IMG/VR virus record: IMGVR_UViG_3300020577_005315
Coordinates: 1 to 64,000 of that record
DNA length: 64,000 nt
Strand: one strand, 5' to 3'
Origin: a virus
Lineage: Duplodnaviria; Caudoviricetes
Shown: piece by piece, positions 3,867-64,000 of the stretch
Layout of the letters: each line of letters begins with the position of its first letter
Numbering within the stretch: the stretch's first letter is position 1
The notes under the pieces: model-generated
Database searches by the model: none
What the model was told of the DNA's origin: nothing
The model's input: the letters and a program-made list of their open reading frames with translations, nothing else
Program-made: the position numbers and the translations under genes

Positions 3867-4940
3867 ATGTCGCACCTCGCCCCGCCCGCCCACGTCCACG
3901 TCCTCTTCAACAACGGGCAGCTCACCCTGCCCGCCTACGACCGTAAGCACCCCGTCGGCCGCCTGACTAGCACGCCGCACGAGAACCTGTCCGAGTACGC
4001 CGGCCGCCTGTGCTACGCGTCGCTCCACAAGGAGCGGGGCCGGCCGTCGGCCGAGTACCACAAGCACATCCTCGAGACGCAGCACAACTCCGTCTACGCG
4101 CACCACGTCTTCACGTTCGAGATACGCGGCACCGCCGTCGCGATGAGCTCCCTGGCCGCCCTCTGCGGCCGCCCCGGCGTCTGGGTGACCCGGATCAGCC
4201 GAGACCACATCCGGTTCGCAGTCAGCCTGCGCGCCGTGCTGGAGTGGGAACAGCACGGCGTCTGCGACGACAGCGACCCGTACGCCTCGGAGATCTCGGC
4301 CGAGATGGTGCAGACGATCCGCATCAAGCTGATCACTCTGTTCCCGAACATCATCAATCCGGGCCCGCTGGTGTCGACGTCCCACTTCTACGACGTGGAT
4401 GCGTTCCTCGAAGACAGCGCCGCCACCACCGAGATGCTCGTCCGCGTCGAGCCCGAGACCGACCAGGAGAAGTGGGCCACGTTCCTCCTGACGGGCGTGT
4501 CCCGCGACCTGCTCCAGGAGCTGGTGCGGCACCACTACCAGTGCAACCCGTCGGTCAGATCGACGCGGTACGTCAATGAGGGACCGTACGACGTCTCCGA
4601 CCCTACGGCCGAGTGCGGCCACATGGTCCCCCACCCGGCTCTGGGCGACATCAGTCGGATGGAGGCCGAGGCCGCGTTCCTGTCCGCCCAGGAGATGAAT
4701 CGCACCATCTACAGCCGGCTGACGTCGAACGGCGTGCCGCCCAAGACGGCGCGCGGGGCCGCCCGGTCGATACTGCCGGGCTGTCTCGAGACGAAGATCG
4801 TGTGGAGCACGTCGCTGTTTCAGCTGAAGCACACGCTCAAGCTGCGGCTCGACCAGGGAACGGGGTCCGTCGACCCGGAGATCCAGAACCTGGCCGGCCT
4901 CTTGCGGGACGCCGCCAGATCCATCGGGTGGGAGGTGTAA
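3867..4940 (+). CDS. thyX: Flavin-dependent thymidylate synthase
   Basis: ATG 3867 after AAGGAG; motifs 'AGRLCYAS', 'HNSVYAH', 'SRDLLQELVRHH..SVRSTRY', 'ARSILP', 'EIQNLA'. Confidence 0.9.
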   Translation: MSHLAPPAHVHVLFNNGQLTLPAYDRKHPVGRLTSTPHENLSEYAGRLCYASLHKERGRPSAEYHKHILETQHNSVYAHHVFTFEIRGTAVAMSSLAALCGRPGVWVTRISRDHIRFAVSLRAVLEWEQHGVCDDSDPYASEISAEMVQTIRIKLITLFPNIINPGPLVSTSHFYDVDAFLEDSAATTEMLVRVEPETDQEKWATFLLTGVSRDLLQELVRHHYQCNPSVRSTRYVNEGPYDVSDPTAECGHMVPHPALGDISRMEAEAAFLSAQEMNRTIYSRLTSNGVPPKTARGAARSILPGCLETKIVWSTSLFQLKHTLKLRLDQGTGSVDPEIQNLAGLLRDAARSIGWEV

Positions 4941-5623
4941 CGTGGAGCGCTACCGCAAGCTGCGGGGGGGAGGTAACGCTCCCCCCGTTCTCTGGCACGC
5001 GTGTTCTGCACATGCCTTTGGTCCTGGGCGAAAGAAAGTCTGTCCCCGACTTCCTGAAGTCCTGGGCTGACGTCGTCACGATGATCGGCGTCGAGCTCAT
5101 GGCTCAGTACGCCGGCCAGGTCGGGTACGTCACGGTGGACGAGCGGTACATTGACGTCGGAGAGACCCTCCGCCGTCCCGGTCTTCACGTCGACGGTTGG
5201 CATAAGACGGAGGCTGACGTCACTGCCGGCGGGTGGGGTGGAGATGGCGGCACCTGGGGCGGGTCCGGCGGTGGTAGTTGGGGTGGCGTCGGTCGCGGAC
5301 AGGGCGGCACCGGCCTGGTCACCGTCTCCAACCCCGCCGGCTGTATGGTGTACGACCAGGAGTTCGACGGGGAACCTGCTCCCGAGGGCGACTGCGAGCA
5401 CCTCCGCCCGCAGTGTACGGTCGGTTACCTACTGGAGGCCAACACCGTCTACTGGATGGCCCCGCTCTGCGTCCACGAGAGCTTACCGGCCGGCTACGCC
5501 CAGAAGCGTCAGTTCTTGCGTCTGTCGATGCCGTCCACGGCCGACTGGTACGAGGGCTACACCGAGAACCCGTTGGGCGTGAAGCCGACGGGCGCGATCA
5601 AACCCAGGCGGCGGTTCGTGTGA
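4937..5623 (+). CDS. Putative 2OG-Fe(II) oxygenase-fold phage protein (start uncertain)
   Basis: 'RRPGLHVDG' (HxD), 'VHESLP' (distal His) and 'RQFLRL' (Arg) match the facial-triad layout; directly downstream of thyX. Confidence 0.55.
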   Translation, partial: VTWSATASCGGEVTLPPFSGTRVLHMPLVLGERKSVPDFLKSWADVVTMIGVELMAQYAGQVGYVTVDERYIDVGETLRRPGLHVDGWHKTEADVTAGGWGGDGGTWGGSGGGSWGGVGRGQGGTGLVTVSNPAGCMVYDQEFDGEPAPEGDCEHLRPQCTVGYLLEANTVYWMAPLCVHESLPAGYAQKRQFLRLSMPSTADWYEGYTENPLGVKPTGAIKPRRRFV

Positions 5624-15293: not shown

Positions 15294-16919
15294 ATGCAGA
15301 CCGAAATCCTCGGCGTCGATCACGACGCCGATTACCAGACGTTCCGGGCGTCCGTCGCCCAGAGCGTTCTGACGACCAACGTCGACGACGCGTTGTGCGT
15401 CGCTCAGGTCGACTACAACATGCTCTGGAAGGCGTACCTCGACGGCATCCCCGCCGAGCACCGCCAGCACTACAACTGTAGTGCGTGCAGGCACTTCTTC
15501 AAGCACTACGGCAGCCTCGTCCTGGTCGACGCGGACGGCCGGAAGAAATCGGCGGTATGGGGGTCGGGCGTAAAGGGCATGTTCGGCCCGATCGCCGCCC
15601 AGCTGGCCGAGGTCGTGCGGAACGCGCCGGTCAAGGCAGTGTTCGCGACCAAGGAGTCCGTCTGCGGCCACCCGCAGAACTTCGGCCGCGACGGGCAGAC
15701 GTGGACGCACTACTCGTGCGTACTCCCTGCGAGTCGCGTCGTGACCGACCCGCTCGTCATGCCGGGCCGTGTGCGGGCCGAGAGCATGGAAGCCTACACC
15801 AGCGTCAGCCGGGTGTACCAGGCGATCGAGCTCAAGACGATCCAGACGGCGTACGACCTGGCCGACCAGGGCCGCCTGAACCGGTCGGGCGTCAACAAGG
15901 CGTCGCTGGAGTGGTTACTGGCTCTGCACGCCGGGGCCGGAGCGACGCTGGAGACCCGCATCTGGTACGGCGTGGCCAAGAACCCCGCCCTGCTCCACCT
16001 GCGAGGGTCGGCCCTGGGGCAGCTGCTGGAGGACCTCCAGAACAGCAGGGTGACGGTCGACCGGGCCGTCAACGTCTACAACGACCGCACCGGCACCGGG
16101 TACCGGGTGGCGACGGCGCCGCCCAAGATCGGCAGCGTCCGCAACGCCGAGCGGATCGTGACCGGGCTGGGGGTGGACGCGTCGCTGAAGCGGCGGTTCG
16201 CCAAGGTGGAGGAGCTGCAGAAGCTCTGGGAGCCGAAGCCGAAGGCCCCCACCGCCGGCACGGGCGGGGTGTTCGGCGGTGTGGTGGTGCGGGCGCAGGC
16301 GGGTGTGTCGTCGGGGCCGGTGTCGGCGACCCCCGTGCGGATGACGTGGCAGAAGTTCGCGCAGACGCTCCTGCCGTCCGCCGGTAAGATCCAGTTCCGG
16401 GTCCGACAGGACCGGGTCAGTTGCCACTGGGGCGCGTTCACGGCCCCGCTCGCGGCAAACGACCCGCCGATCTTCGCGTGGGACGACCCCCACAACAGGA
16501 ACCCGTACGGGTTCTTCGCGTGGGCGTGTCGGGATGATGGTCCCAAGATCGTGGGATTCCGGGACGGACAGGTCGTCGACGTGACGGGGGTGGCCTATAC
16601 CCCGTCCATCTGGAACGGCAAGACGTGGGGGCACGACCACGGGGTCGTGTTCACCCTCGACGGCGCCCGCTTCCAGGCCGACTGGGGGATGGCGCTCTTC
16701 CCGGTCGAGCTGCGGACGGAGCTCCAGCCGGCCCGCGCGACCATCACGGCGTTCTCCAAGGCCAACAACCTGGCCGACCGCGCCGACGCCACCGCGGTGG
16801 GGTTCTACCTGCAGAACCGCACCACCACGCCGAAGGGCGCCCCGTTCGTTCAGGAGGCCCACCTGAACGTGTACACCAACGTCGGCAACCAGTACGTCGT
16901 CATCGACCGCTGGGACTGA
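15294..16919 (+). CDS. Hypothetical phage protein with CxxC/His motif
   Basis: AAGGA SD; 'HYNCSACRHF' and 'WTHY' motifs; high GC3. Confidence 0.7.
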   Translation: MQTEILGVDHDADYQTFRASVAQSVLTTNVDDALCVAQVDYNMLWKAYLDGIPAEHRQHYNCSACRHFFKHYGSLVLVDADGRKKSAVWGSGVKGMFGPIAAQLAEVVRNAPVKAVFATKESVCGHPQNFGRDGQTWTHYSCVLPASRVVTDPLVMPGRVRAESMEAYTSVSRVYQAIELKTIQTAYDLADQGRLNRSGVNKASLEWLLALHAGAGATLETRIWYGVAKNPALLHLRGSALGQLLEDLQNSRVTVDRAVNVYNDRTGTGYRVATAPPKIGSVRNAERIVTGLGVDASLKRRFAKVEELQKLWEPKPKAPTAGTGGVFGGVVVRAQAGVSSGPVSATPVRMTWQKFAQTLLPSAGKIQFRVRQDRVSCHWGAFTAPLAANDPPIFAWDDPHNRNPYGFFAWACRDDGPKIVGFRDGQVVDVTGVAYTPSIWNGKTWGHDHGVVFTLDGARFQADWGMALFPVELRTELQPARATITAFSKANNLADRADATAVGFYLQNRTTTPKGAPFVQEAHLNVYTNVGNQYVVIDRWD

Positions 16920-17128
16920 CTCCTCCAACGTCCACAGAAGGGGGGTGATGTACTCTGCCGGGAGCCATGTGTAGTAGGTGCAAGGGTTACCACTCGCCAA
17001 TGGAGCCCTGTGCCTACCAGTAGATTCGCCCGAGTGGGTTGAGTGACTCGCTCGGGCGAACATGACAACTATTCTGATCCCCGCGACGGCCAATCGGCCG
17101 TCGCTTTCTTTTATTCGTGGAGACGCCT

Positions 17129-18001: not shown

Positions 18002-18217
18002 GTGATGACCCGTTCTGTTACACGAGACCCGCACGGACTTGTGGTCACTGGTGCGGAAGAACGGGGGGCTGACGGTTTCATACACATCGTCAGCCCCCCG
18101 TTCGCCTATATCAGCCCCCCGTCCGCCAGTAATCGTAATTACCGGGAATACTACCGCGTGTGGTGGTGTTTACCGTTCGGGGGCTCGTGGCTATTCGTTC
18201 AGGACGAGGAAGGTTGA
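18002..18217 (+). CDS. DEEG-tag family protein (array 1, #1)
   Basis: Ends VWWCLPFGGSWLFVQDEEG*. Confidence 0.7.
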   Translation: MMTRSVTRDPHGLVVTGAEERGADGFIHIVSPPFAYISPPSASNRNYREYYRVWWCLPFGGSWLFVQDEEG

Positions 18218-18245
18218 CCCGTGGAGTACTACTGAGGATCCGTGA

Positions 18246-18827
18246 ATGAGCACACCCAAGCCGGTTAACGCGTGTCGAGACGTGTGTCGGCAGGCGTTCG
18301 GCGTTGTCACTGTATTCTGTAAGCGTGGGGGAGGTAAGTCCGGCGTGACTTCGCATCTCCTCCACACGCGCCCGTCGGGCGAGAAGCGTACCCGCTTTAA
18401 CCCTCGCGAGGTCGACACGAGCGGTCTCGTCGATGACGACGGGCCGTTGTGGGGTTGGCCTAGCGGCGTCATTGACGTAGCGTCACTACGTTATGCGGGC
18501 TCCGAGTTCGCCCGACGGGTACGGCCGGACCTCGCGGTCCACGACGCTGACACGGCGCTACAGATCGCACGCGCCATGTCACCCCAGGAGCTCAATTCGC
18601 ACCTCTCGTGGTGTCACGACATCGACGCGGAGTGGGATGAGGCCGTCGTCCAGGCGTACCTCGACCGCCCCGACGTCGGGGCGTCCATCGACCGTGTGTG
18701 GGCCGAGAACGTCCGACTCTGGGACGAGGAGTCGGCGTACCTCGCGACGTTACCCGACCAGGAGGGGCCGGTGTGGTACGGCTTACCGGACTACCAAGAA
18801 CTGTTCGTTCCGGACGACGAGGGTTAA
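18246..18827 (+). CDS. DEEG-tag family protein (array 1, #2)
   Basis: Ends VWYGLPDYQELFVPDDEG*. Confidence 0.7.
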   Translation: MSTPKPVNACRDVCRQAFGVVTVFCKRGGGKSGVTSHLLHTRPSGEKRTRFNPREVDTSGLVDDDGPLWGWPSGVIDVASLRYAGSEFARRVRPDLAVHDADTALQIARAMSPQELNSHLSWCHDIDAEWDEAVVQAYLDRPDVGASIDRVWAENVRLWDEESAYLATLPDQEGPVWYGLPDYQELFVPDDEG

Positions 18828-18842
18828 CTGTTGGAGGCCGAC

Positions 18843-19064
18843 ATGATCCGTGCGTTGTTACGAGCGTCTCAAGACGTCAATGTCTATCTTGAGCGTGGCA
18901 TCAGGAGTATCCGGCTGAACGTCGGATCGCGCCTGAAGCGTCACGTCCTGGCCAAAGACGAAAGGTACCGCCTCGTCGGTAAGAAGCCGCTGAACGAGGA
19001 ACAGTTTATCACGTCGCTCCTCCCCAACGGGTTGTCACTGTTCGTCCCGGACGAGGAGGGCTAA
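18843..19064 (+). CDS. DEEG-tag family protein (array 1, #3)
   Basis: GGAGG SD and ATG 18843; ends LLPNGLSLFVPDEEG*. Confidence 0.7.
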   Translation: MIRALLRASQDVNVYLERGIRSIRLNVGSRLKRHVLAKDERYRLVGKKPLNEEQFITSLLPNGLSLFVPDEEG

Positions 19065-19086
19065 CCACGAGGTGAGGAGTACTACC

Positions 19087-19512
19087 ATGAGCACGCCGAT
19101 CGCCATGCACCGCGAACACCACGTGACGGTGTTCTTCCCGCGTACTGACACCGCCGACCGAACGTCCGGTGCGGTGGTGTCACGCGCGGTCAGCACCGCA
19201 ACGCACCCGACCGTGATCCGCGACCCGCCGCCTGTGCCGGCCGAGGTGAAGGCGGCGGTCAGGAATTCGCCGGCTTTACAGCTGCTGAGACACGAGCTCC
19301 GCAAGAAAAGTTCGCGCCGCAGACTCCCGAGAACCCGTGGTACGTTAGGCGTCTTGACGCCTAACGAAATCGCCCACGCCCGAACGCTGCTCGACCACGA
19401 TAGGGCGCACACGCTGCACCTGCACACGAAGCAGCTGTCTCAGGACTTCAAGGTCCTGTGGCAGAATCTGCCTAGGGCGCACTACCTGTTCGTCCCGGAC
19501 GAGGAAGGTTGA
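19087..19512 (+). CDS. DEEG-tag family protein (array 1, #4)
   Basis: GAGGAG SD and ATG 19087; ends LWQNLPRAHYLFVPDEEG*. Confidence 0.7.
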   Translation: MSTPIAMHREHHVTVFFPRTDTADRTSGAVVSRAVSTATHPTVIRDPPPVPAEVKAAVRNSPALQLLRHELRKKSSRRRLPRTRGTLGVLTPNEIAHARTLLDHDRAHTLHLHTKQLSQDFKVLWQNLPRAHYLFVPDEEG

Positions 19513-19537
19513 CCGACACTATTAACAGGGGAAAATT

Positions 19538-19870
19538 GTGCCTAACAACGCGCTCGAGGCCCTGAGAGCCCGGTGGAGGGGGTTTGTGACGGTCGCTCGT
19601 GGCGAGTTCATCGGTGGCGGACCCGAACCGACGTTTTTCATCGACGACAAACGTCGGCTCGAACAGATCCACGACCAGGCTAAGCGAATCGACGTCGGTA
19701 AGCCCGCGCTACGAGACTTCGACGGCAACTCACGTCTTGCCAACGTCTGGGCACGGCTGCCGGGTGGGTCGATTTTGTACGCACACATCAACCGCACCAG
19801 CGGTAAATTGCCGCGTGACGTGACGCGGCAGATGTGGCGCGAGCTGTTCGTGTTCGACGAAGAAGGCTGA
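19538..19870 (+). CDS. DEEG-tag family protein (array 1, #5)
   Basis: Contains VWARLP and ends MWRELFVFDEEG*. Confidence 0.7.
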   Translation: MPNNALEALRARWRGFVTVARGEFIGGGPEPTFFIDDKRRLEQIHDQAKRIDVGKPALRDFDGNSRLANVWARLPGGSILYAHINRTSGKLPRDVTRQMWRELFVFDEEG

Positions 19871-20097: not shown

Positions 20098-20103
20098 CCG
20101 TCG

Positions 20104-20138
20104 AGCCCGGGGTGACCCCCGGGCTTTTTCTTAGCCGT
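20104..20138 (+). terminator. Rho-independent terminator
   Basis: GC-rich AGCCCGGGG/CCCCGGGCT stem, TTTT tract, then CTTAGCCGT. Confidence 0.85.
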
Positions 20139-47369: not shown

Positions 47370-48875
47370 ATGACGGCAACTGCCCAGGAGACGGACAAGG
47401 CGATGAGCGACGAGCACAAGGGTAAGCACAAGAAGTGCAAAGGCAAGGAGGAAGAGCGTCGGCCGGCGTCCGACTTCAACCAATCGGAGCTGGACGACAA
47501 GCTCGAGATGGCGCGGATGTTCATCCAGATGCTCTGGCCGTACCTGTACAGCGGCGTCGCCAAGATGTCCCCGCGGTGGTGCACCCACCCGCACCTGCGG
47601 ACGATGGCCGTCGACAAGTACTGGCGGCTGTACCTCGACCGCGAGCACGTCAACAACATCAGCCACTCCGAGCTGGCGCTGATGCTCGTCGGGCACGAGC
47701 TGATGCACCTGATGTACGCCCACAACGACCGCCTGATGGAGCACCAGGACTCGTTCCTGATGAGCCCCACCGGCGACCTGGTGTCGTTCAACAACTTCGT
47801 CGGGGACATGGCCATCAACTGCAGTCTGCAGGCGGTCCTCGACGCGGGCATGAAGTACTACCAGCAGACGTCCGGGCGCGGCATCCAGAGCGGCAAGGTC
47901 ACGGTCCCGACCGACATCCTCCTGCCGACCAACTTCAAGGACAAGGCTGGCAACCCGTTCCCGGACGGACTGCTCCTCGAAGACTACGCCCAGCTGCTCA
48001 TCGACAACGCCCGGGAACCCGAGGACGGGGGTGATGATAAGGGTGAGAAGAAGGGCGGTTGGACGCTCTTCACCCGCAACGGTAAGGGTAAGGGAATCTC
48101 GGGGCCGGGCAAGGGCTGTGACTGCGGCTCCGGCGCGGACGGCAACGACCGCGAGTGGGAGGACAAGGACAAGCCCGACCCACGTAACCCGAAGACCGGC
48201 CTGTCGAAGGAGCGGCAGGACATCGAGCGGCAGTCACTGGCGGAGAGCATCAAGAACCACGAGGCCAAGCACCCTGGCACCACTCCGGGCGGCATGGTGC
48301 TCTGGGCCGACGTCCACCTTCGGCCGGTCAAGGAGCACTGGTCCAAAATCCTGTCGCGGGTGCTCCGCTCCGGCCTCGGTACGCTCCGCGGCGACTACGA
48401 GGTCTCGTACGCCGTCCCCAACCGGCGGTCGATCGCCACGCGATCGCAGATCATCCTGCCCGGTCGGCTGACGCCGAAGCCGAACTTCGCCCTGCTGCTC
48501 GACACGTCGGGCAGCATGGGGGAGTCCGACTACTCCAGCGCGTTCAGCCACATCCAGGCGATCCTGAAGCAGTGCGACGTCAAGAAGGTGCCGTTCCTGG
48601 CGTGCGACACGGAGGTCGCCGAGGTCCGCTACATCTCGTCCCTCAAGGACGTGAAGTTGGTCGGCGGCGGCGGCACCGACATGCGGGTGGGGATCGAGAA
48701 GGCGCACGACGTGTTCCCCCACAACCGCAAGAGCCTGGTCATCTGCCTGACCGACGGGTATACTCCGTGGCCGAGTGAGAAGCCGGCGAACATGGAGGTG
48801 GTCGTCGTCCTCACCCAGAAGACGGACGCCCAGGTGCCGAGCTTCTGCCGCGTCGTCCGCGCTTACGACGACTGA
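47370..48875 (+). CDS. Metallopeptidase-like (HExxH) plus VWA domain protein (DUF2201-like)
   Basis: 'TMAVD', 'HELMH', 'DMAIN', MIDAS 'DTSGSM', 'GGGGTD', 'LTDG'. Confidence 0.85.
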   Translation: MTATAQETDKAMSDEHKGKHKKCKGKEEERRPASDFNQSELDDKLEMARMFIQMLWPYLYSGVAKMSPRWCTHPHLRTMAVDKYWRLYLDREHVNNISHSELALMLVGHELMHLMYAHNDRLMEHQDSFLMSPTGDLVSFNNFVGDMAINCSLQAVLDAGMKYYQQTSGRGIQSGKVTVPTDILLPTNFKDKAGNPFPDGLLLEDYAQLLIDNAREPEDGGDDKGEKKGGWTLFTRNGKGKGISGPGKGCDCGSGADGNDREWEDKDKPDPRNPKTGLSKERQDIERQSLAESIKNHEAKHPGTTPGGMVLWADVHLRPVKEHWSKILSRVLRSGLGTLRGDYEVSYAVPNRRSIATRSQIILPGRLTPKPNFALLLDTSGSMGESDYSSAFSHIQAILKQCDVKKVPFLACDTEVAEVRYISSLKDVKLVGGGGTDMRVGIEKAHDVFPHNRKSLVICLTDGYTPWPSEKPANMEVVVVLTQKTDAQVPSFCRVVRAYDD

Positions 48876-57790: not shown

Positions 57791-60700
57791 ATGGTTAAGC
57801 ACAACAGCAAGCTGCCCACGACCTGTGTGAAGCGCGACGGCGCCACCGTGCCTTTCGACGGCGAGAAGATCGTCAAGGCAATCCGTCGCTGCTTCGACAA
57901 CGTCTGGGCGGACGAACGTACTCTCGCGGACAAGAGCGTCGACGACGTCGTCGGCAACATCTACGGGCGGGTGCTCAATGTGATCGCGGCCCAGAAGGCC
58001 GACCAAGTCAGCGTGGAAGACGTCCAACGGTTCGTCCTCCACGTCCTCTGGTCGGACAAGCTGTACGCCGCGGCCGAGCACTACCAGAACTACCGAGAGG
58101 ACCGGCGTAAGGCCCGGTTCAACACGGCCGTGACCCCCGACCGCCTGGAAACGGTCAAGGCGGACCAGAAGCACTTCCCGACGGACCTGCAGTACTACCA
58201 GTTCATCGGAAAGTTCTCGCGCTGGCGGGACGCCGACCGCCGCCGGGAGACGTGGAAGGAGACGGTCACGGAACGGGTGATGCCCTGGTTCAAGGGCTTG
58301 CCCGGTGCCCAGCTCGAAGACGCCGAGTGGAGCATGCTGCAGGACAGCATGTACAACCTCGAGTCGTCCCCGGCCATGCGGGTCGTGCAGATGGCCGGGC
58401 CGGCGCTGCAGAGGGAGCCGCTGGGATGCTACAACTGTCTGGGCGTCGAGACGGCGTTTATCACCCGTAATGGTGTGAAGACGTTTCGAGACTTCAAAGA
58501 CGGCGACACTACCGTGGTGCTTACGCACACCGGCTCCTGGAAGAACGCTGTCGTTCGAAACTACGGCGTCCAGAAGCTCTACACACACCACATCAATCGC
58601 TCACGCACCAAAGTGACTGTTCGCGCCACGGCCAACCACCGCTGGGTGCTGAGTGACGGTAGTGTTCAAACCGGGCTCAAGGCGGGCGATAAGCTCCACT
58701 TGCCGCCGTGTCCGTCGATCAACTGGAACTACGACGCTGCAGAACCGCTGGAGAAGCTCTACTGGGCGTACGGATACGTGTACGGCGACGGTACCCGCGT
58801 CAAGAAGGACGGTGAGTACACGTACTCGATGGTTCGTCTCTGTAAGAACGACCGTGGGTACCTTGAGCGATTCGAAGAGCTCGGTTTCGGCTCCAGTAAT
58901 CCGTTGTCGTGTAAGGGCGACCCGATCGTCTACACTGGTAGCTACCTCAAGACTCTCCCCGAGTTGACCGACGACTTGGGCGTGATCCGGGCTTTCGTAC
59001 GCGGCTACCTGGACGCGGACGGCGGTAGTGGTCACCCCCAGTCGCCGAACGACTTCTCCTGCATTCAGGTGACCGGCGAACAGTCTATCGAGTTCGTTCG
59101 ACGCGTGTTTCCCGTCGCGGGCTACTACATCACGCGCGAAGAGGTTGTCGACAAGGACACCAATTTCGGTCCGCGCTCGGCTCTGACAATTCGGTTCGGA
59201 CTGACGAACAACTTCGGCGTTGCGACGAACCGGTTCTACGGGTTGACGTCGAACGTCGAAGACGACGGTAGTCCGCCGGAAGAAGTGTGGTGTCTCGAGG
59301 TCGAAGACGACCACTCGTTCGTGCTCCCGTCAGGTGTCGTCACTGGAAACTGCGCTTATGCACCGATTGTCGACAGAACGTCATTCTCTGAACTCCTGTA
59401 CGTACTCATGCAGGGGACGGGGATGGGGTTCTCAGTCGAAAACGACTACATCGACGAGCTGCCTCGCATCAAGAAGCAGCGTAACACCCCTCGGGAACGG
59501 ATCGTCGTCCCGGACAGTACTGAGGGGTGGTGCAAGTCGTACGACCGCTACCTGGAGCTCCTCTGGGACGGGCGTGAGGCGGACATCGACGTCTCGTTCG
59601 TCCGCAAGGCGGGCAGCCGCCTGAAAACTAAAGGCGGGAAAGCATCCGGTCCGGGGCCTTTCCTGGAGCTCTGCTCGTTCGCCAGCAATCTGTTCAAGTC
59701 GCGTCAGGGTAAGTACCTGACCGACCTGGATTGTCACGACCTGGCCTGCATGACGGGTCGGATTGTTCAGGTGGGCGGCGTCCGTCGGGCGGCAGAGATC
59801 TCCTTGTCCGACCTGAACTCGCGGGCGATGCGGGACGCCAAGTCTGGCGCGTGGTGGACCAACAACCCGCAGCGGTCGATGGCGAACAACTCGGCCGTCT
59901 ACGAGGAGAAGCCGGACTCTACGACGTTCATGGAGGAGTGGCTGGCGCTCACCAAGTCCCGCAGCGGCGAGCGCGGTATCTTCAACCGGCAGGCCGCGCA
60001 GCTACACAAGCCTAAGCGTCGTAAGATGGTACGATTTGGCGTTAACCCGTGCGCGGAAATATTACTTTCGCCTCATGGTTTGTGTAATCTCAGTATGTGT
60101 ATCGCACGTCAGAACGATACCGCCGAATCGCTACGACGTAAGGTCCGTGCCGCCACATACTTCGGCAAGCTGCAGTCGCTGTGTACGAACTTCAATTACG
60201 TCCGGTCCGACTGGAAGCGTAACGCCGAAGAGGAGCGTCTCCTGGGTGTGGACATCACGGGTCAGGCCGACTGCCCCTTACTGAGGTTCAACTCTCAGAC
60301 CGATCGGGCCGCTCTCCTCCGGACGCTCCAGGAGGAGGTCCTGTCAGTCGACCGGATGCTGGCCGAACGCTGGGGCATCAACGTCTCCGCGGCAGCTACG
60401 ACCGTAAAGCCGGGCGGTGACTCTGCGGTGTTCTTCGACTGCTCTTCGGGCGTGAGCCCGCGTTTCAGCCGGCACCAGATCCGGTGGGTGCGAGAGTCGA
60501 AGGACAGTCCCGTGGCCCGCTTCCTGATCGACAGCGGCGTTCCGCACGCCCCGGCCCCCGAGGCCCCGGATCGCCTACTGGTGTTCGGGTTCCCGAAGGC
60601 TGCCCCGACCGGCTGTACGCTCCGTGACGACATGACCGTGATCGACCAACTCGAGAACTGGCTGACGTGGAAGGAGAACTGGGCCGAACACTCCGTGTCC

Positions 60701-60970
60701 GCCACCATCTACGTCGGCGACGACGAGTGGCTGACGGCCGGGAATTGGGTCTACAACCATTTCGACCAGATCACGGGCCTGTCGTTCCTTCCGCGGGACA
60801 ACGGCACCTACACGTACGCCCCGAACGAGGAGATCGACGAGGCGAAGTACGGCGAGATGATGAACTCCTTCCCTGACCTCAACTGGGCGAAGCTGTCCGC
60901 CTACGAGGAGGAGGACATGACCGAGGCCGCTATCACGTTCGCCTGCGTGGGCGGCGGCTGCGACAACTAA
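57791..60970 (+). CDS. nrdJ: Class II (adenosylcobalamin-dependent) ribonucleotide reductase with ATP-cone and intein
   Basis: ATP-cone 'VKRDG..VPFDGEKI', 'YNC', 'GTGMGFS', 'GGVRRAAEI', 'NPCAEI', 'TVKPGG', C-terminal 'ACVGGGC'. Confidence 0.92.
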   Translation: MVKHNSKLPTTCVKRDGATVPFDGEKIVKAIRRCFDNVWADERTLADKSVDDVVGNIYGRVLNVIAAQKADQVSVEDVQRFVLHVLWSDKLYAAAEHYQNYREDRRKARFNTAVTPDRLETVKADQKHFPTDLQYYQFIGKFSRWRDADRRRETWKETVTERVMPWFKGLPGAQLEDAEWSMLQDSMYNLESSPAMRVVQMAGPALQREPLGCYNCLGVETAFITRNGVKTFRDFKDGDTTVVLTHTGSWKNAVVRNYGVQKLYTHHINRSRTKVTVRATANHRWVLSDGSVQTGLKAGDKLHLPPCPSINWNYDAAEPLEKLYWAYGYVYGDGTRVKKDGEYTYSMVRLCKNDRGYLERFEELGFGSSNPLSCKGDPIVYTGSYLKTLPELTDDLGVIRAFVRGYLDADGGSGHPQSPNDFSCIQVTGEQSIEFVRRVFPVAGYYITREEVVDKDTNFGPRSALTIRFGLTNNFGVATNRFYGLTSNVEDDGSPPEEVWCLEVEDDHSFVLPSGVVTGNCAYAPIVDRTSFSELLYVLMQGTGMGFSVENDYIDELPRIKKQRNTPRERIVVPDSTEGWCKSYDRYLELLWDGREADIDVSFVRKAGSRLKTKGGKASGPGPFLELCSFASNLFKSRQGKYLTDLDCHDLACMTGRIVQVGGVRRAAEISLSDLNSRAMRDAKSGAWWTNNPQRSMANNSAVYEEKPDSTTFMEEWLALTKSRSGERGIFNRQAAQLHKPKRRKMVRFGVNPCAEILLSPHGLCNLSMCIARQNDTAESLRRKVRAATYFGKLQSLCTNFNYVRSDWKRNAEEERLLGVDITGQADCPLLRFNSQTDRAALLRTLQEEVLSVDRMLAERWGINVSAAATTVKPGGDSAVFFDCSSGVSPRFSRHQIRWVRESKDSPVARFLIDSGVPHAPAPEAPDRLLVFGFPKAAPTGCTLRDDMTVIDQLENWLTWKENWAEHSVSATIYVGDDEWLTAGNWVYNHFDQITGLSFLPRDNGTYTYAPNEEIDEAKYGEMMNSFPDLNWAKLSAYEEEDMTEAAITFACVGGGCDN
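58436..59350 (+). mobile_element. Intein with LAGLIDADG homing endonuclease (305 aa)
   Basis: Begins CLGVET after YN; block B 'ATANHRW'; 'GYVYGDG' and 'GYLDADG'; ends 'VWCLEV..HSF..GVVTGN' before the +1 Cys. Confidence 0.92.
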
Positions 60971-61065: not shown

Positions 61066-61113
61066 GAGTCGTTAGTGAATTCCTTGCGACGCCTAGCAGA
61101 TCGAGAGGAAGAC

Positions 61114-61725
61114 ATGCAGCTCGTAAGCGACTTTCGCGACTACTACGACTGGGCGTTTGACCGTGACGGGGTCGTGTTCGACAGGATGGCTCGTAACAGC
61201 GGTCCAAAGAAGGCTGCTCAGTTCAGCATCCTCCGCGACACACTCGGACACCTGACTCCGCCCGTCGGACCTGTAAACTGCGTACTCGGGACGAAGTGGC
61301 GGGGTAAGACGATCGACAAGGTCGTTGCCTACACGGACGACGCGGCTCACTGCGGCGAGGGTAAAGAGCTCGTCACACTAGACTCAGACGGCTGGCGGAC
61401 CAACACTACGCTCTGTTCGGCGTATTTAGGTAAGCCGGGGCTGAGTTGGAGAAAACTACACGTAGGTCCGCACGTGTTCTGGATCGAGTACACGTCCACC
61501 GAGTCGTGGATGTCGAACGTGGGTGACGGAACGTGCGAAGTCATCGGCGTCGAGATGGACTTTGGCATCACAATATACCCGCTCCTGGCGATCGACTTCG
61601 TCCTGGACGACGAGATGTACGCGGTGGACCTGAACGTGGCTCCGGGGATCAAAGGCAGCGGCGTCGAGAAGCTCCTCCCGGCTGAGCAGGTGGTCGAAGC
61701 GATCAGACGTTGGTGTGCTTGGTAA
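61114..61725 (+). CDS. ATP-grasp-like protein (divergent/short)
   Basis: GAGGA SD; 'HCGEGK' loop, 'WMSN', C-terminal 'LLAIDFV...YAVDLNVAPG' resembling the RimK-type D..ExNxxPG motif. Confidence 0.55.
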   Translation: MQLVSDFRDYYDWAFDRDGVVFDRMARNSGPKKAAQFSILRDTLGHLTPPVGPVNCVLGTKWRGKTIDKVVAYTDDAAHCGEGKELVTLDSDGWRTNTTLCSAYLGKPGLSWRKLHVGPHVFWIEYTSTESWMSNVGDGTCEVIGVEMDFGITIYPLLAIDFVLDDEMYAVDLNVAPGIKGSGVEKLLPAEQVVEAIRRWCAW

Positions 61726-62165: not shown

Positions 62166-62171
62166 CGCATG

Positions 62172-62196
62172 ACCCCGGGGCGACCCGGGGTTTCTT
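62172..62196 (+). terminator. Rho-independent terminator
   Basis: ACCCCGGG-GCGA-CCCGGGGT-TTCTT (GNRA loop). Confidence 0.75.
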
Positions 62197-62211: not shown

Positions 62212-62430
62212 ATGCAGATACAAAGGCACCTCCTGTGGGTGTCGGGACGTGGTGACGATGATAAGCTGATAATCGGGATGAATGTTTTAGTGTTTGGTGG
62301 AAAGTACAGCGAAGTCGTAATCGACGCAGTGAAGTTCACGTACGAGGAGGTCACAACACTCGACGCCGACTGGTTTATCGATCACCTGCCGGAGTTCGAC
62401 GGACTGTTCGTCTTTGACGAAGAGGGCTAA
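62212..62430 (+). CDS. DEEG-tag family protein (array 2, #1)
   Basis: Ends FIDHLPEFDGLFVFDEEG*. Confidence 0.7.
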   Translation: MQIQRHLLWVSGRGDDDKLIIGMNVLVFGGKYSEVVIDAVKFTYEEVTTLDADWFIDHLPEFDGLFVFDEEG

Positions 62431-62432
62431 CG

Positions 62433-62645
62433 ATGACTCGAACCAGCGAGCTGTCTCGGTGTCTCACGTATGACCACGAGTACTACTTCACAGTGATGAA
62501 TCAATACGACTGGCACACTTGGTCTAGGATCACCGTGTCAGTCGACAGCCCGGAGTTGAACGGACACTGGATCCGGCACCTGACGGCGATTTGGTTGAAT
62601 CTTCCCAGGAACGACGAACTCTACGCCTACGACGAGGAGGGGTGA
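62433..62645 (+). CDS. DEEG-tag family protein (array 2, #2)
   Basis: Ends IWLNLPRNDELYAYDEEG*. Confidence 0.7.
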   Translation: MTRTSELSRCLTYDHEYYFTVMNQYDWHTWSRITVSVDSPELNGHWIRHLTAIWLNLPRNDELYAYDEEG

Positions 62646-62647
62646 GC

Positions 62648-62878
62648 GTGTACTGCCGATCGAGGAGTCATAGCGATAGAACGGAGCTACTGTACAGATA
62701 CCTACACAGTCTGACGGTGGCGGTAGACACCCGCTGTGGTAGAGACGTCGGCGTCGTCGTGTACGCGTTCAGTGGACGTGACCGCCGCGACGACACGCCC
62801 GAGACACAACAACTGACAGTACTGTGGCGCGCTCTGCCCAGGGGAAAGAAGCTGTTCACCCCGGACGAGGAGGGTTAA
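62648..62878 (+). CDS. DEEG-tag family protein (array 2, #3)
   Basis: GTG 7 nt after GAGGAGG; ends LWRALPRGKKLFTPDEEG*. Confidence 0.7.
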   Translation: MYCRSRSHSDRTELLYRYLHSLTVAVDTRCGRDVGVVVYAFSGRDRRDDTPETQQLTVLWRALPRGKKLFTPDEEG

Positions 62879-62880
62879 CC

Positions 62881-63075
62881 GTGTCGGTACGTCTCACTGG
62901 AATGTTCCGCTACTACGGCACGACGTTGGTCGCCGTCGATAACGTCGTCAAGTGCGACGCCAACTTCATCGTATCACACGGTGGACCCGATGCGGCACAG
63001 GATGTAGAGTTCGATCGCGTATGGAGACTTTTGCCACATCGGGGAAACCTGTTCACCCCGGACGAGGAGGGCTGA
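62881..63075 (+). CDS. DEEG-tag family protein (array 2, #4)
   Basis: Ends VWRLLPHRGNLFTPDEEG*. Confidence 0.7.
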   Translation: MSVRLTGMFRYYGTTLVAVDNVVKCDANFIVSHGGPDAAQDVEFDRVWRLLPHRGNLFTPDEEG

Positions 63076-63077
63076 CC

Positions 63078-63308
63078 GTGTCGACGTGTCTCATCAACAT
63101 GTATCGCTATTACGGCACGACGTCTTTCGTAAGAATGTATCGCTATTACCACATGGCGTCAGTCGCCGTCGATAACAACGTCACGTGCGACATCGACCTC
63201 ATCACATCACACAGCGGATGCGTTGTGGCGTATGATACAAAGTTCGAACGTGTGTGGAGTAGTCTGCCACAGATGGAAGACCTGTTCACTCTGGACGAGG
63301 AGGGCTGA
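63078..63308 (+). CDS. DEEG-tag family protein (array 2, #5)
   Basis: Ends VWSSLPQMEDLFTLDEEG*. Confidence 0.7.
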   Translation: MSTCLINMYRYYGTTSFVRMYRYYHMASVAVDNNVTCDIDLITSHSGCVVAYDTKFERVWSSLPQMEDLFTLDEEG

Positions 63309-63310
63309 CC

Positions 63311-63508
63311 GTGTCGACGTGTTTCATCAACATGTATCGCTATTACGGCACGCCGTCGGTCGCTGTCGACAGTTACGACAAGAATGACGCCGGCGTCATC
63401 ACGTCACACAGTGGATACAGCTGCTCGGAGCGGGATACAGAATTCAACCGTGTGTGGAGACTTTTGCCGCAGATGAGTGACCTGTATGAACTGGACGAGG
63501 AGGGGTGA
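63311..63508 (+). CDS. DEEG-tag family protein (array 2, #6)
   Basis: Ends VWRLLPQMSDLYELDEEG*. Confidence 0.7.
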   Translation: MSTCFINMYRYYGTPSVAVDSYDKNDAGVITSHSGYSCSERDTEFNRVWRLLPQMSDLYELDEEG

Positions 63509-63510
63509 TC

Positions 63511-63768
63511 GTGTGCGGAAGCGTCGTATTGTCGGTGTTGAGAGAGGTTTGGGGCGGTGGGTGGTTTGGCATCCAACTGTGCATCGGGGACCACCCTCGG
63601 AGCGAAGTCTGGTCGATGCCGGCGATCAATTACGTAGACTTCCGACACACCCTGCCGGACTCGAGGTTGTTTCGTGAAGAAAGCGACGCCCGGCGCGGAA
63701 CCTTCGTGAGGTTGGTCTTCGCGCTACCGAACCGGCGGGAGCTATACGTCTTCGACGAGGAGGGCTGA
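63511..63768 (+). CDS. DEEG-tag family protein (array 2, #7)
   Basis: Ends LVFALPNRRELYVFDEEG*. Confidence 0.7.
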   Translation: MCGSVVLSVLREVWGGGWFGIQLCIGDHPRSEVWSMPAINYVDFRHTLPDSRLFREESDARRGTFVRLVFALPNRRELYVFDEEG

Positions 63769-63769
63769 C

Positions 63770-63988
63770 GTGCGTCACGTGTACAGGATTCAAAGGGGGT
63801 ACCCGGAGCAGTACAACGCGTTAGCTGTGTACACCACAACGCCAACGCCTAGTGTGGTGGAGGCCGCGGATCTGGCCGTACCGCACGTTCTCGGGTTGAG
63901 AACCGAGCGAATTAACGAAGTGTTGATGAAAATCTGGTGGAATCTACCCTGTACCGAAGAACTATACACCTACGACGAGGAGGGATGA
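63770..63988 (+). CDS. DEEG-tag family protein (array 2, #8)
   Basis: Ends IWWNLPCTEELYTYDEEG*; the next GTG at 63991 suggests the array continues past the window. Confidence 0.7.
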   Translation: MRHVYRIQRGYPEQYNALAVYTTTPTPSVVEAADLAVPHVLGLRTERINEVLMKIWWNLPCTEELYTYDEEG

Positions 63989-64000
63989 CGGTGAGTCGAG

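Follow-up and report, generated by a model that had tools for sequence, protein, structure and literature searches.

A Bipartite C-Terminal Module Shared by Tandem Arrays of Small Proteins with Divergent Bodies in an Uncultured Phage

A Family of Small Phage Proteins with a Shared C-Terminal Module

The window analyzed here, which covers the first 64 kb of an uncultured virus record of 93,520 bp (IMGVR_UViG_3300020577_005315), contains tandem arrays of small genes whose products have largely dissimilar N-terminal parts (hereafter bodies) and a common C-terminal module (hereafter the tail). Tail-bearing genes account for 16 of the roughly 107 genes in the 93.5-kb phage record, and sequence comparisons indicate that they belong to a real multigene family, hitherto undescribed and known only from phage contigs. 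The tail has been selected as a peptide, and its last codons double as the ribosome-binding site of the following gene. As a tentative reading, we propose that fast-evolving bodies have in the tail a common docking handle, which is probably read by a host factor.

A first-pass annotation, made from the sequence of the window alone, had described eight consecutive tail-bearing open reading frames (ORFs) between positions 62212 and 64000, and all eight exist (B1–B8 below). A hidden Markov model (HMM) scan of the six-frame ORFs of the whole record extended this set to exactly 16 members, all of them on the plus strand, which are divided between array A (five genes, 18002–19870) and array B (eleven genes, 62212–64685). 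Array B runs past the end of the window, and its final three genes, B9–B11, lie outside it. Of the 995 stop-to-stop ORFs with 50 or more amino acids (aa), 16 have an end of the form L[FY]xxD[EDG]EG, for which the chance expectation is 0.0001; no such end occurred in 50 Markov-random genomes.

The module is composed of a helix pattern, Phi-x2-Phi-W-x2-L-P (Phi being a hydrophobic residue), a variable loop and a terminal segment, [ED]-L-[FY]-[VT]-Phi-D-x-E-G, directly followed by the stop codon. Among the 44 family members of the C-terminal type, from this phage and from the relatives described below, the terminal segment consists of [ED], L (43 of 44), F (36) or Y (8), mostly V (22) or T (19), an aromatic residue or P, D, a variable residue, E (42) or D (2), and G, with Asp at position −4 and Gly at position −1 invariant (44/44 each). 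The helix pattern, Phi(-7)-x-x-[VLI](-4)-W(-3)-x-x-L(0)-P(+1), has the amphipathic spacing i, i+3, i+4, i+7 with a Pro cap, and the hydrophobic fractions at −7, −4, −3, and 0 are 0.51, 0.98, 0.83, and 1.0, respectively. The loop between the helix and the end has four residues in this phage, except in A1 (5) and A5 (23), and ranges from 4 to 20 or more residues in relatives; the module is therefore bipartite rather than a rigid 18-mer, and its two sub-motifs are separable and tolerate variable loops. The initial description, a variable payload with a constant handle of about 18 aa, thus captured the architecture but not the nature of the handle. In four relatives from contig L023, the motif is internal (..LFVPD[LV]DE) and is followed by 15–30 further residues, with no Gly after the DE, which implies that a free terminal Gly is no requirement of the family. 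The module does not resemble sortase or exosortase signals (LPXTG, PEP-CTERM), as the loop after its L-P is polar, the end is acidic, and there is no membrane span.

Selection on the Tail as a Peptide and as a Ribosome-Binding Site

Codon usage and substitution patterns both demonstrate selection on the tail as a peptide. All six Leu codons and all four Pro codons are used for the LP pair, as are all four Gly codons for the terminal residue, and DNA identity between copies of the 57-nt tail is just 61–81%. The ratio of nonsynonymous to synonymous substitution rates (dN/dS), a comparison of tail and body already envisaged in the first-pass annotation, was 0.02–0.64 for the last 18 codons versus 0.26–1.09 for the bodies, with the tail lower in 8/8 paralog pairs. 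Strain variants gave no dN/dS signal, since only two substitutions were found across 48 genes.

The inference drawn earlier from the variety of Gly, Glu, and stop codons, that selection acts on the peptide, is borne out by the Gly, Leu, and Pro codons but has to be qualified, because GAG-GAG-GG also provides the Shine-Dalgarno (SD) site of the next gene. Gene ends reading GAC-GAG-GAG-GGN-TGA contain GGAGG 5–8 nt upstream of the next start codon, and the last three codons (xxG GAG GGN) double as the SD site of the next cistron. Together with the intergenic distances of 1–2 nt in array B, this arrangement fits translational coupling. At the 34 coupled junctions found across all contigs, codon −2 is GAG in 32, and codon −3 ends in G in 33, although the amino acid encoded at −3 varies (E, G, A, K, L, R, V, Q). 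At uncoupled gene ends, position −2 is acidic in 10/10, with GAA or GAC in use, and the Gly is retained; A5, the final gene of array A, likewise keeps its DEEG, encoded by the non-SD codons GAA GAA. Two layers of constraint can thus be separated: W, L, P, L, F/Y, and D are under pure peptide selection, position −3 is mostly RNA-selected, and positions −2 and −1 are subject to both. The function as an SD site for the downstream gene accounts in large part for the terminal x-E-G. This is an example of dual coding: nine bases encode the conserved terminus of one protein and at the same time serve as the ribosome-binding site for the gene behind it, an arrangement through which every gene would become a self-coupling cassette.

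The same data bear on a purely nucleic-acid explanation, according to which the 3′ end would be kept only as the next ribosome-binding site and as a junction at which shuffled cassettes recombine, and the peptide would have no function of its own. Such an explanation would account for GAG at codon −2 and for the G-ending codon −3 with its varying amino acid, for genes that are 1–2 nt apart or overlap, and for a cassette boundary that adjoins a junction. However, the residues W, L, P, L, F/Y, and D are encoded outside the SD site and persist despite synonymous codon changes, the DNA identity of the tail copies is low, as is the dN/dS of the tail, and array-terminal or uncoupled genes retain the acidic residue and the Gly in non-SD codons. 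Moreover, no other ORF in the genome has such an end, despite many closely spaced or overlapping genes. As the sole explanation it is already contradicted, and we consider it the least probable of the readings discussed here. Fusion of the arrays into a polyprotein by frameshifting was also rejected, as the stop-to-start offsets differ by junction (−1, 0, 1, 2, and 4 nt).

Distribution among Uncultured Phages

Searches of curated collections are consistent with the first impression that no described family has this tail. No significant match was obtained for 16 members against Pfam and PHROGs or for 40 members against Pfam and NCBIfam, and no member aligned with one known Pfam domain along its full length, which would have pointed to simple paralog expansion; the best curated-profile E-values (0.04–0.06) each came from one member and fell short of the cut-offs. 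Among PDB sequences there was no significant match either, the only entry touched being 2k8f_B (p53 TAD1, FSDLWKLLP) at E=1.6, and a literature search on the motif and on planctomycete phages returned nothing relevant.

When the tail profile was compared with 1.84 billion representative proteins, it recovered the members from this phage and two further proteins, P0014 and P0018, only, the four other matches being low-complexity repeats. The contigs encoding P0014 and P0018 carry more arrays, with 16 members in L023 and 5 + 1 + 10 in L027/L038, which brings the family to 48 members in this phage and two other contig sets. All 48 derive from one handful of sequencing runs or samples. Across the approximately 37 kb of the other array contigs, nothing else is common with this phage at E<1e-4, although a few of their genes match PHROG families. 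The second array-bearing phage has a variant (L052) in which an IS605 OrfB/TnpB (Cas12f-like) is inserted at 3918–5063.

Broader searches gave chance matches. The exact pattern LP-x4-L[FY]xxDEEG-stop had only such matches in IMG/VR, JGI metagenomes, and GTDB genomes, and these lay in low-GC DNA, away from ORF ends. Planctomycete proteomes had been put forward as a place where the tail might recur, but the tail profile yielded four marginal partial matches across 401 Planctomycetota genomes, which is the chance level. Searches of IMG/VR with P0014 and with a 541-aa neighbor of array A gave no match.

Divergent Bodies and the Docking-Handle Reading

Each member consists of a fast-evolving N-terminal body, usually of 40–65 aa, and the conserved C-terminal module. 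Under the docking-handle reading, this module would bring many different bodies to one common partner, in the manner of other short docking peptides made of a helix and an acidic tail; its closest functional models are the capsid targeting sequence of T4 (PMC3012670) and short helical docking peptides. On the helix, the Phi/W/L face may, like the L-[FY] pair, enter hydrophobic pockets on this partner, and the acidic end of the tail may meet a basic patch, leaving the bodies as the diversifying parts, probably directed at the host or its defenses. A host component is more likely than a phage protein to be the reader, because otherwise unrelated phages have only this family in common. In a more specific form, which is possible but which we hold with less assurance, the tail would be a bipartite C-terminal “address label” on about 15% of the phage's genes, passed between unrelated phages of one host, with one host hub receiving many mini-effectors and the last codons serving as the coupling ribosome-binding site. 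If the tail is indeed an address label, a tail-fusion pull-down could reveal a central hub, of the host or of the phage, in an uncharacterized, possibly planctomycete, virus–host system, and the 48 bodies would represent a library of small effectors aimed around that hub. One candidate reader, encoded by the phage itself at 47370–48875, is a DUF2201-type protein that combines a metallopeptidase-like N-domain with a VWA-like one, the VWA domain being a type able to capture acidic peptides.

The bodies are mostly unrelated at the sequence level. After the tails had been stripped, the 38 bodies compared gave seven BLAST pairs in three small groups (B3–B6; L023_2097/L027_2720; L023_2526/3242), compared with 0–1 pairs in shuffles. 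The earlier statement that the N-terminal parts are unrelated except in the fourth to sixth genes of array B therefore stands at the sequence level but needs widening, as B3 also groups with B4–B6 and B2 does so weakly. Alignment of bodies from two subgroups with hhalign gave a probability of 0.1%, and the net charge of the bodies ranges from −9 to +11.

These observations have to be weighed against the possibility that all members share one small, hugely diverged fold, an alpha/beta domain of about 65–75 aa in which W, L, P, L, and F/Y would build the hydrophobic core and the turns, and the N-terminal half, being variable, would provide a rapidly evolving functional surface (for example, that of host-defense inhibitors or host-takeover proteins), with no address role. 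Several features point in this direction and weigh against a docking handle. Body lengths cluster tightly, mostly at 41–67 aa; an Arg occurs within residues 2–11 in 36/38 bodies versus 25.4 ± 2.8 in shuffled sequences, a count reached in 0/2000 shuffles; and a beta-like stretch after this Arg is modestly enriched (20/38 versus 12.7 ± 2.8 shuffled). Taken together, they hint at one shared small fold. Weak, near-full-length alignments were found for five pairs (A1-B11, A3-B3, A4-B8, B10-B3, and B11-B5), the conserved residues are of the kind that builds cores and turns, variable loops are normal in folded domains, and bodies of 40–60 aa are marginal as independent folds. Neither a long flexible linker upstream of the helix nor a recognizable body domain that also occurs without the tail was found. 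In addition, given that the genomes of the other array-bearing phages are only partly assembled, a common reader may be encoded by the phages outside the sampled DNA.

On the other side, the lack of similarity among tail-stripped bodies beyond the three small groups, the negligible profile–profile probability, and the wide range of net charge speak against a single fold, and so do the 60–120 extra residues inserted in the long members. An invariant-Arg column in the MAFFT alignment was also attained by 3/30 shuffles. An AlphaFold2 model of B4, built on a 30-member alignment, has two short strands and an end left unpacked on the body, with the best-scored helix on EFDRVWRLL; its predicted local distance difference test score (pLDDT) is low (57), which makes the unpacked tail weak evidence and tempers this point in favor of a docking handle. 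Neither B8 nor the A2 body found a usable match in the ESM Atlas. On balance, we regard a single diverged fold as less likely, albeit the main competitor, and retain the docking handle as the preferred reading. The module might instead act as an assembly handle, with the helix and strand driving self- or mixed oligomers that display different bodies; amphipathic helices and edge strands are common oligomerization elements, and coupled translation of adjacent genes would favor co-assembly, but we consider this quite improbable.

Array Members, Genomic Context, and Turnover

Array A comprises A1 (18002–18217; 71 aa, end VWWCLPFGGSWLFVQDEEG, HMM E=8e-13), A2 (18246–18827; 193 aa, with a long body and the end VWYGLPDYQELFVPDDEG), A3 (18843–19064; 73 aa, end LLPNGLSLFVPDEEG), A4 (19087–19512; 141 aa, end LWQNLPRAHYLFVPDEEG), and A5 (19538–19870; 110 aa), in which the 23-aa loop lies between the W..LP helix and an LFVFDEEG end. 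Array B begins with B1 (62212–62430; 72 aa, end FIDHLPEFDGLFVFDEEG), B2 (62433–62645; 70 aa, end IWLNLPRNDELYAYDEEG), and B3 (62648–62878; 76 aa, end LWRALPRGKKLFTPDEEG), whose body is akin to those of B4–B6 by BLAST. B4 (62881–63075; 64 aa, end VWRLLPHRGNLFTPDEEG), the member modeled with AlphaFold2, is followed by its paralogs B5 (63078–63308; 76 aa), which has an internal MYRYY duplication, and B6 (63311–63508; 65 aa), and then by B7 (63511–63768; 85 aa, end LVFALPNRRELYVFDEEG) and B8 (63770–63988; 72 aa, end IWWNLPCTEELYTYDEEG). B9 (81 aa, end LFTWDGEG) occupies genome positions 63991–64236, of which the window holds 63991–64000, and B10 (64238–64465) and B11 (64467–64685), both recovered by the HMM, lie beyond the window.

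A transcription unit bounded by terminator-like hairpins on the plus strand (17083–17104 and 20103–20126) contains array A in the order [291-aa gene]-A1..A5-[65-aa gene] and is located in the structural half of the genome. Upstream of it, at 15294–16919, lies the gene for the 541-aa neighbor, a DUF8224/phrog_1735 protein with about 30% identity to hypothetical proteins of Mesyanzhinovviridae-type siphophages and Rhizobium phages, which is the sole clear tie to cultured phages besides a ribonucleotide reductase. This class II reductase and two unknown genes precede array B. Within the reductase ORF (57791–60970, 1059 aa), the translation shows an intein-like insert, in which one segment (..GYLDADGG..) resembles the LAGLIDADG motif. 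A third terminator-like hairpin (62171–62192, plus strand) ends 20 nt upstream of the B1 start codon, leaving no room for a promoter, and array B would therefore need read-through from the upstream operon. Downstream of B11, an AT-rich gap of 275 nt (genome 64686–64959), in which (TTC)n/(GAA)n tracts form inverted repeats and positions 64833–64864 hold a 13-bp hairpin, separates array B from the replication module; the phage encodes a family A polymerase.

The position of array A, in a terminator-bounded unit within the structural half, would suit virion targeting, in which the tail would dock small proteins on the head, scaffold, or portal for packaging and ejection into the host. However, array B adjoins replication and nucleotide-metabolism genes, the other array contigs (about 37 kb) have no structural or other gene in common with this phage, the conserved peptide is C-terminal and does not resemble the phage T4 targeting sequence, and a prohead protease was not identified among the proteins scanned. 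We therefore consider virion targeting improbable.

Comparison of paralogs and strain variants shows that the arrays change by tandem duplication (B4–B6) and by cassette replacement (A3–A5). B4–B6 are recent tandem duplicates. Two strain variants (L005/L006) are identical to this phage through A1, A2, and the first 34 nt of A3, the breakpoint lying inside that gene, and A3–A5 are replaced by unrelated DNA (10430–11200 in L005/L006 versus 18877–19870 in the window); the DNA on the downstream side is far more diverged than that upstream, which is identical. A short sequence, GAGTACTAC, occurs three times on the plus strand (18224–18232, 19077–19085, and 62478–62486), where 0.27 copies are expected and 0/100 shuffles reach three. 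Two copies lie in intergenic spacers of array A and the third within B2, and one of the spacer copies falls in a four-codon mini-ORF, GTG GAG TAC TAC TGA, after A1.

The ATP-Grasp-Like Neighbor and C-Terminal Modification

Two genes upstream of array B, a gene at 61075–61725 (plus strand) encodes a 216-aa protein that the first-pass annotation had listed among the candidate partners of the tail as an ATP-grasp enzyme. This protein belongs to no Pfam family, and its homologs from uncultured phages number at least 50. With a profile built from it and 25 homologs, the five best PDB matches were all ATP-grasp enzymes, each weak (E 0.06–0.44), including synapsin (E=0.06), RimK (0.26), and LysX (0.42), and they aligned on the nucleotide-binding core. 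An ATP-grasp fold is thus plausible for this protein.

The gene raises the possibility of C-terminal modification or conjugation, in which a nearby ATP-grasp-like enzyme would extend the acidic DEEG end or ligate it, in the style of RimK/S6, LysX/LysW, or tubulin ligases, or in which this end would act as a modifier of the ubiquitin or Pup type. Apart from its proximity to array B and the ATP-grasp enzymes that top its profile matches, little speaks for such a role, and every one of these matches is non-significant on its own. Homologs of 52–59% identity in other phages lie between RecA/RNase T and DnaB/primase, and five such loci had no tail-bearing ORF within 7–10 kb on each side; conversely, the other array contigs (about 37 kb) have no homolog of the gene. 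We therefore see no grounds for linking the gene to the tail, contrary to its earlier nomination as a partner, and in view of its context it is best regarded as an uncharacterized conserved replication-module gene. A terminator also separates it from array B. The related suggestion that the free C-terminal Gly recalls ubiquitin-like modifiers fared no better, given the four relatives with an internal motif and an end that is E-G, neither G-G nor Glu, with Gly terminal in 44/44. An activating enzyme or ligase (E1-like, PafA/Dop) was not found by Pfam among 50 larger proteins of the phage, many of whose genes have no family at all. Modification or conjugation of the tail is accordingly very improbable.

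Comparison with Known Systems

In ubiquitin-like and Pup-like modifiers the C-terminus is GG or GGQ/GGE and has to be free or to become so, in contrast to the [ED]-G found here in 44/44. RimK/S6 and LysX/LysW are systems in which ATP-grasp enzymes modify acidic C-terminal tails, and the arrays resemble them in having an acidic C-terminus and an ATP-grasp-like gene nearby; they differ in the absence of co-occurrence across phages, in the terminal Gly instead of Glu, and in the motif being sometimes internal.

The use of one terminal peptide on many proteins, read by one hub, is familiar from the ..DDDIPF tail of single-stranded DNA-binding protein (SSB), the clamp-binding motif QL[SD]LF, and the ..EEVD end of Hsp70/90, which is read by TPR proteins. 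In comparison with the SSB tail, the order is reversed here, as in L-[FY]-x-x-D-E-E-G the hydrophobic pair comes before the acidic run and Gly is last. The sliding-clamp motif (Q-L-[SD]-L-F or Q-L-x-L-x-L) differs as well, since the residues before L-[FY] are mostly D/N/S/R/E followed by E/D; Gln is rare there, being outside the six commonest residues at −10 and occurring twice at −9, so the tail does not qualify as a clamp-binding motif. Neither a clamp gene nor a TPR protein was seen among the scanned proteins of this phage. The helix resembles that of p53 TAD1 (F-x3-W-x2-L, ...FSDLWKLLP...) in its Phi(i)-W(i+4)-L(i+7)-Pro arrangement on an amphipathic helix, although p53 is a eukaryotic transcription factor and the match (E=1.6) is not significant; the likeness would be convergence at most, with no homology, and serves to illustrate the way in which a helix of this kind can dock.

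A phage precedent for diverse proteins with one common peptide is provided by the T4 internal proteins, which are diverse small proteins with an N-terminal capsid targeting sequence of about 10 residues that is removed by the prohead protease (PMC3012670). The module described here differs in being C-terminal, bipartite, and unrelated in sequence, and in being common to unrelated phages, and the N-termini of the family have nothing in common except the Arg enrichment, which does not amount to a T4-type N-terminal targeting peptide. The likeness lies in the organization: in both cases, small and diverse phage proteins encoded in variable loci have one common short peptide, which in T4 sends all carrier proteins to one destination (PMC3012670).

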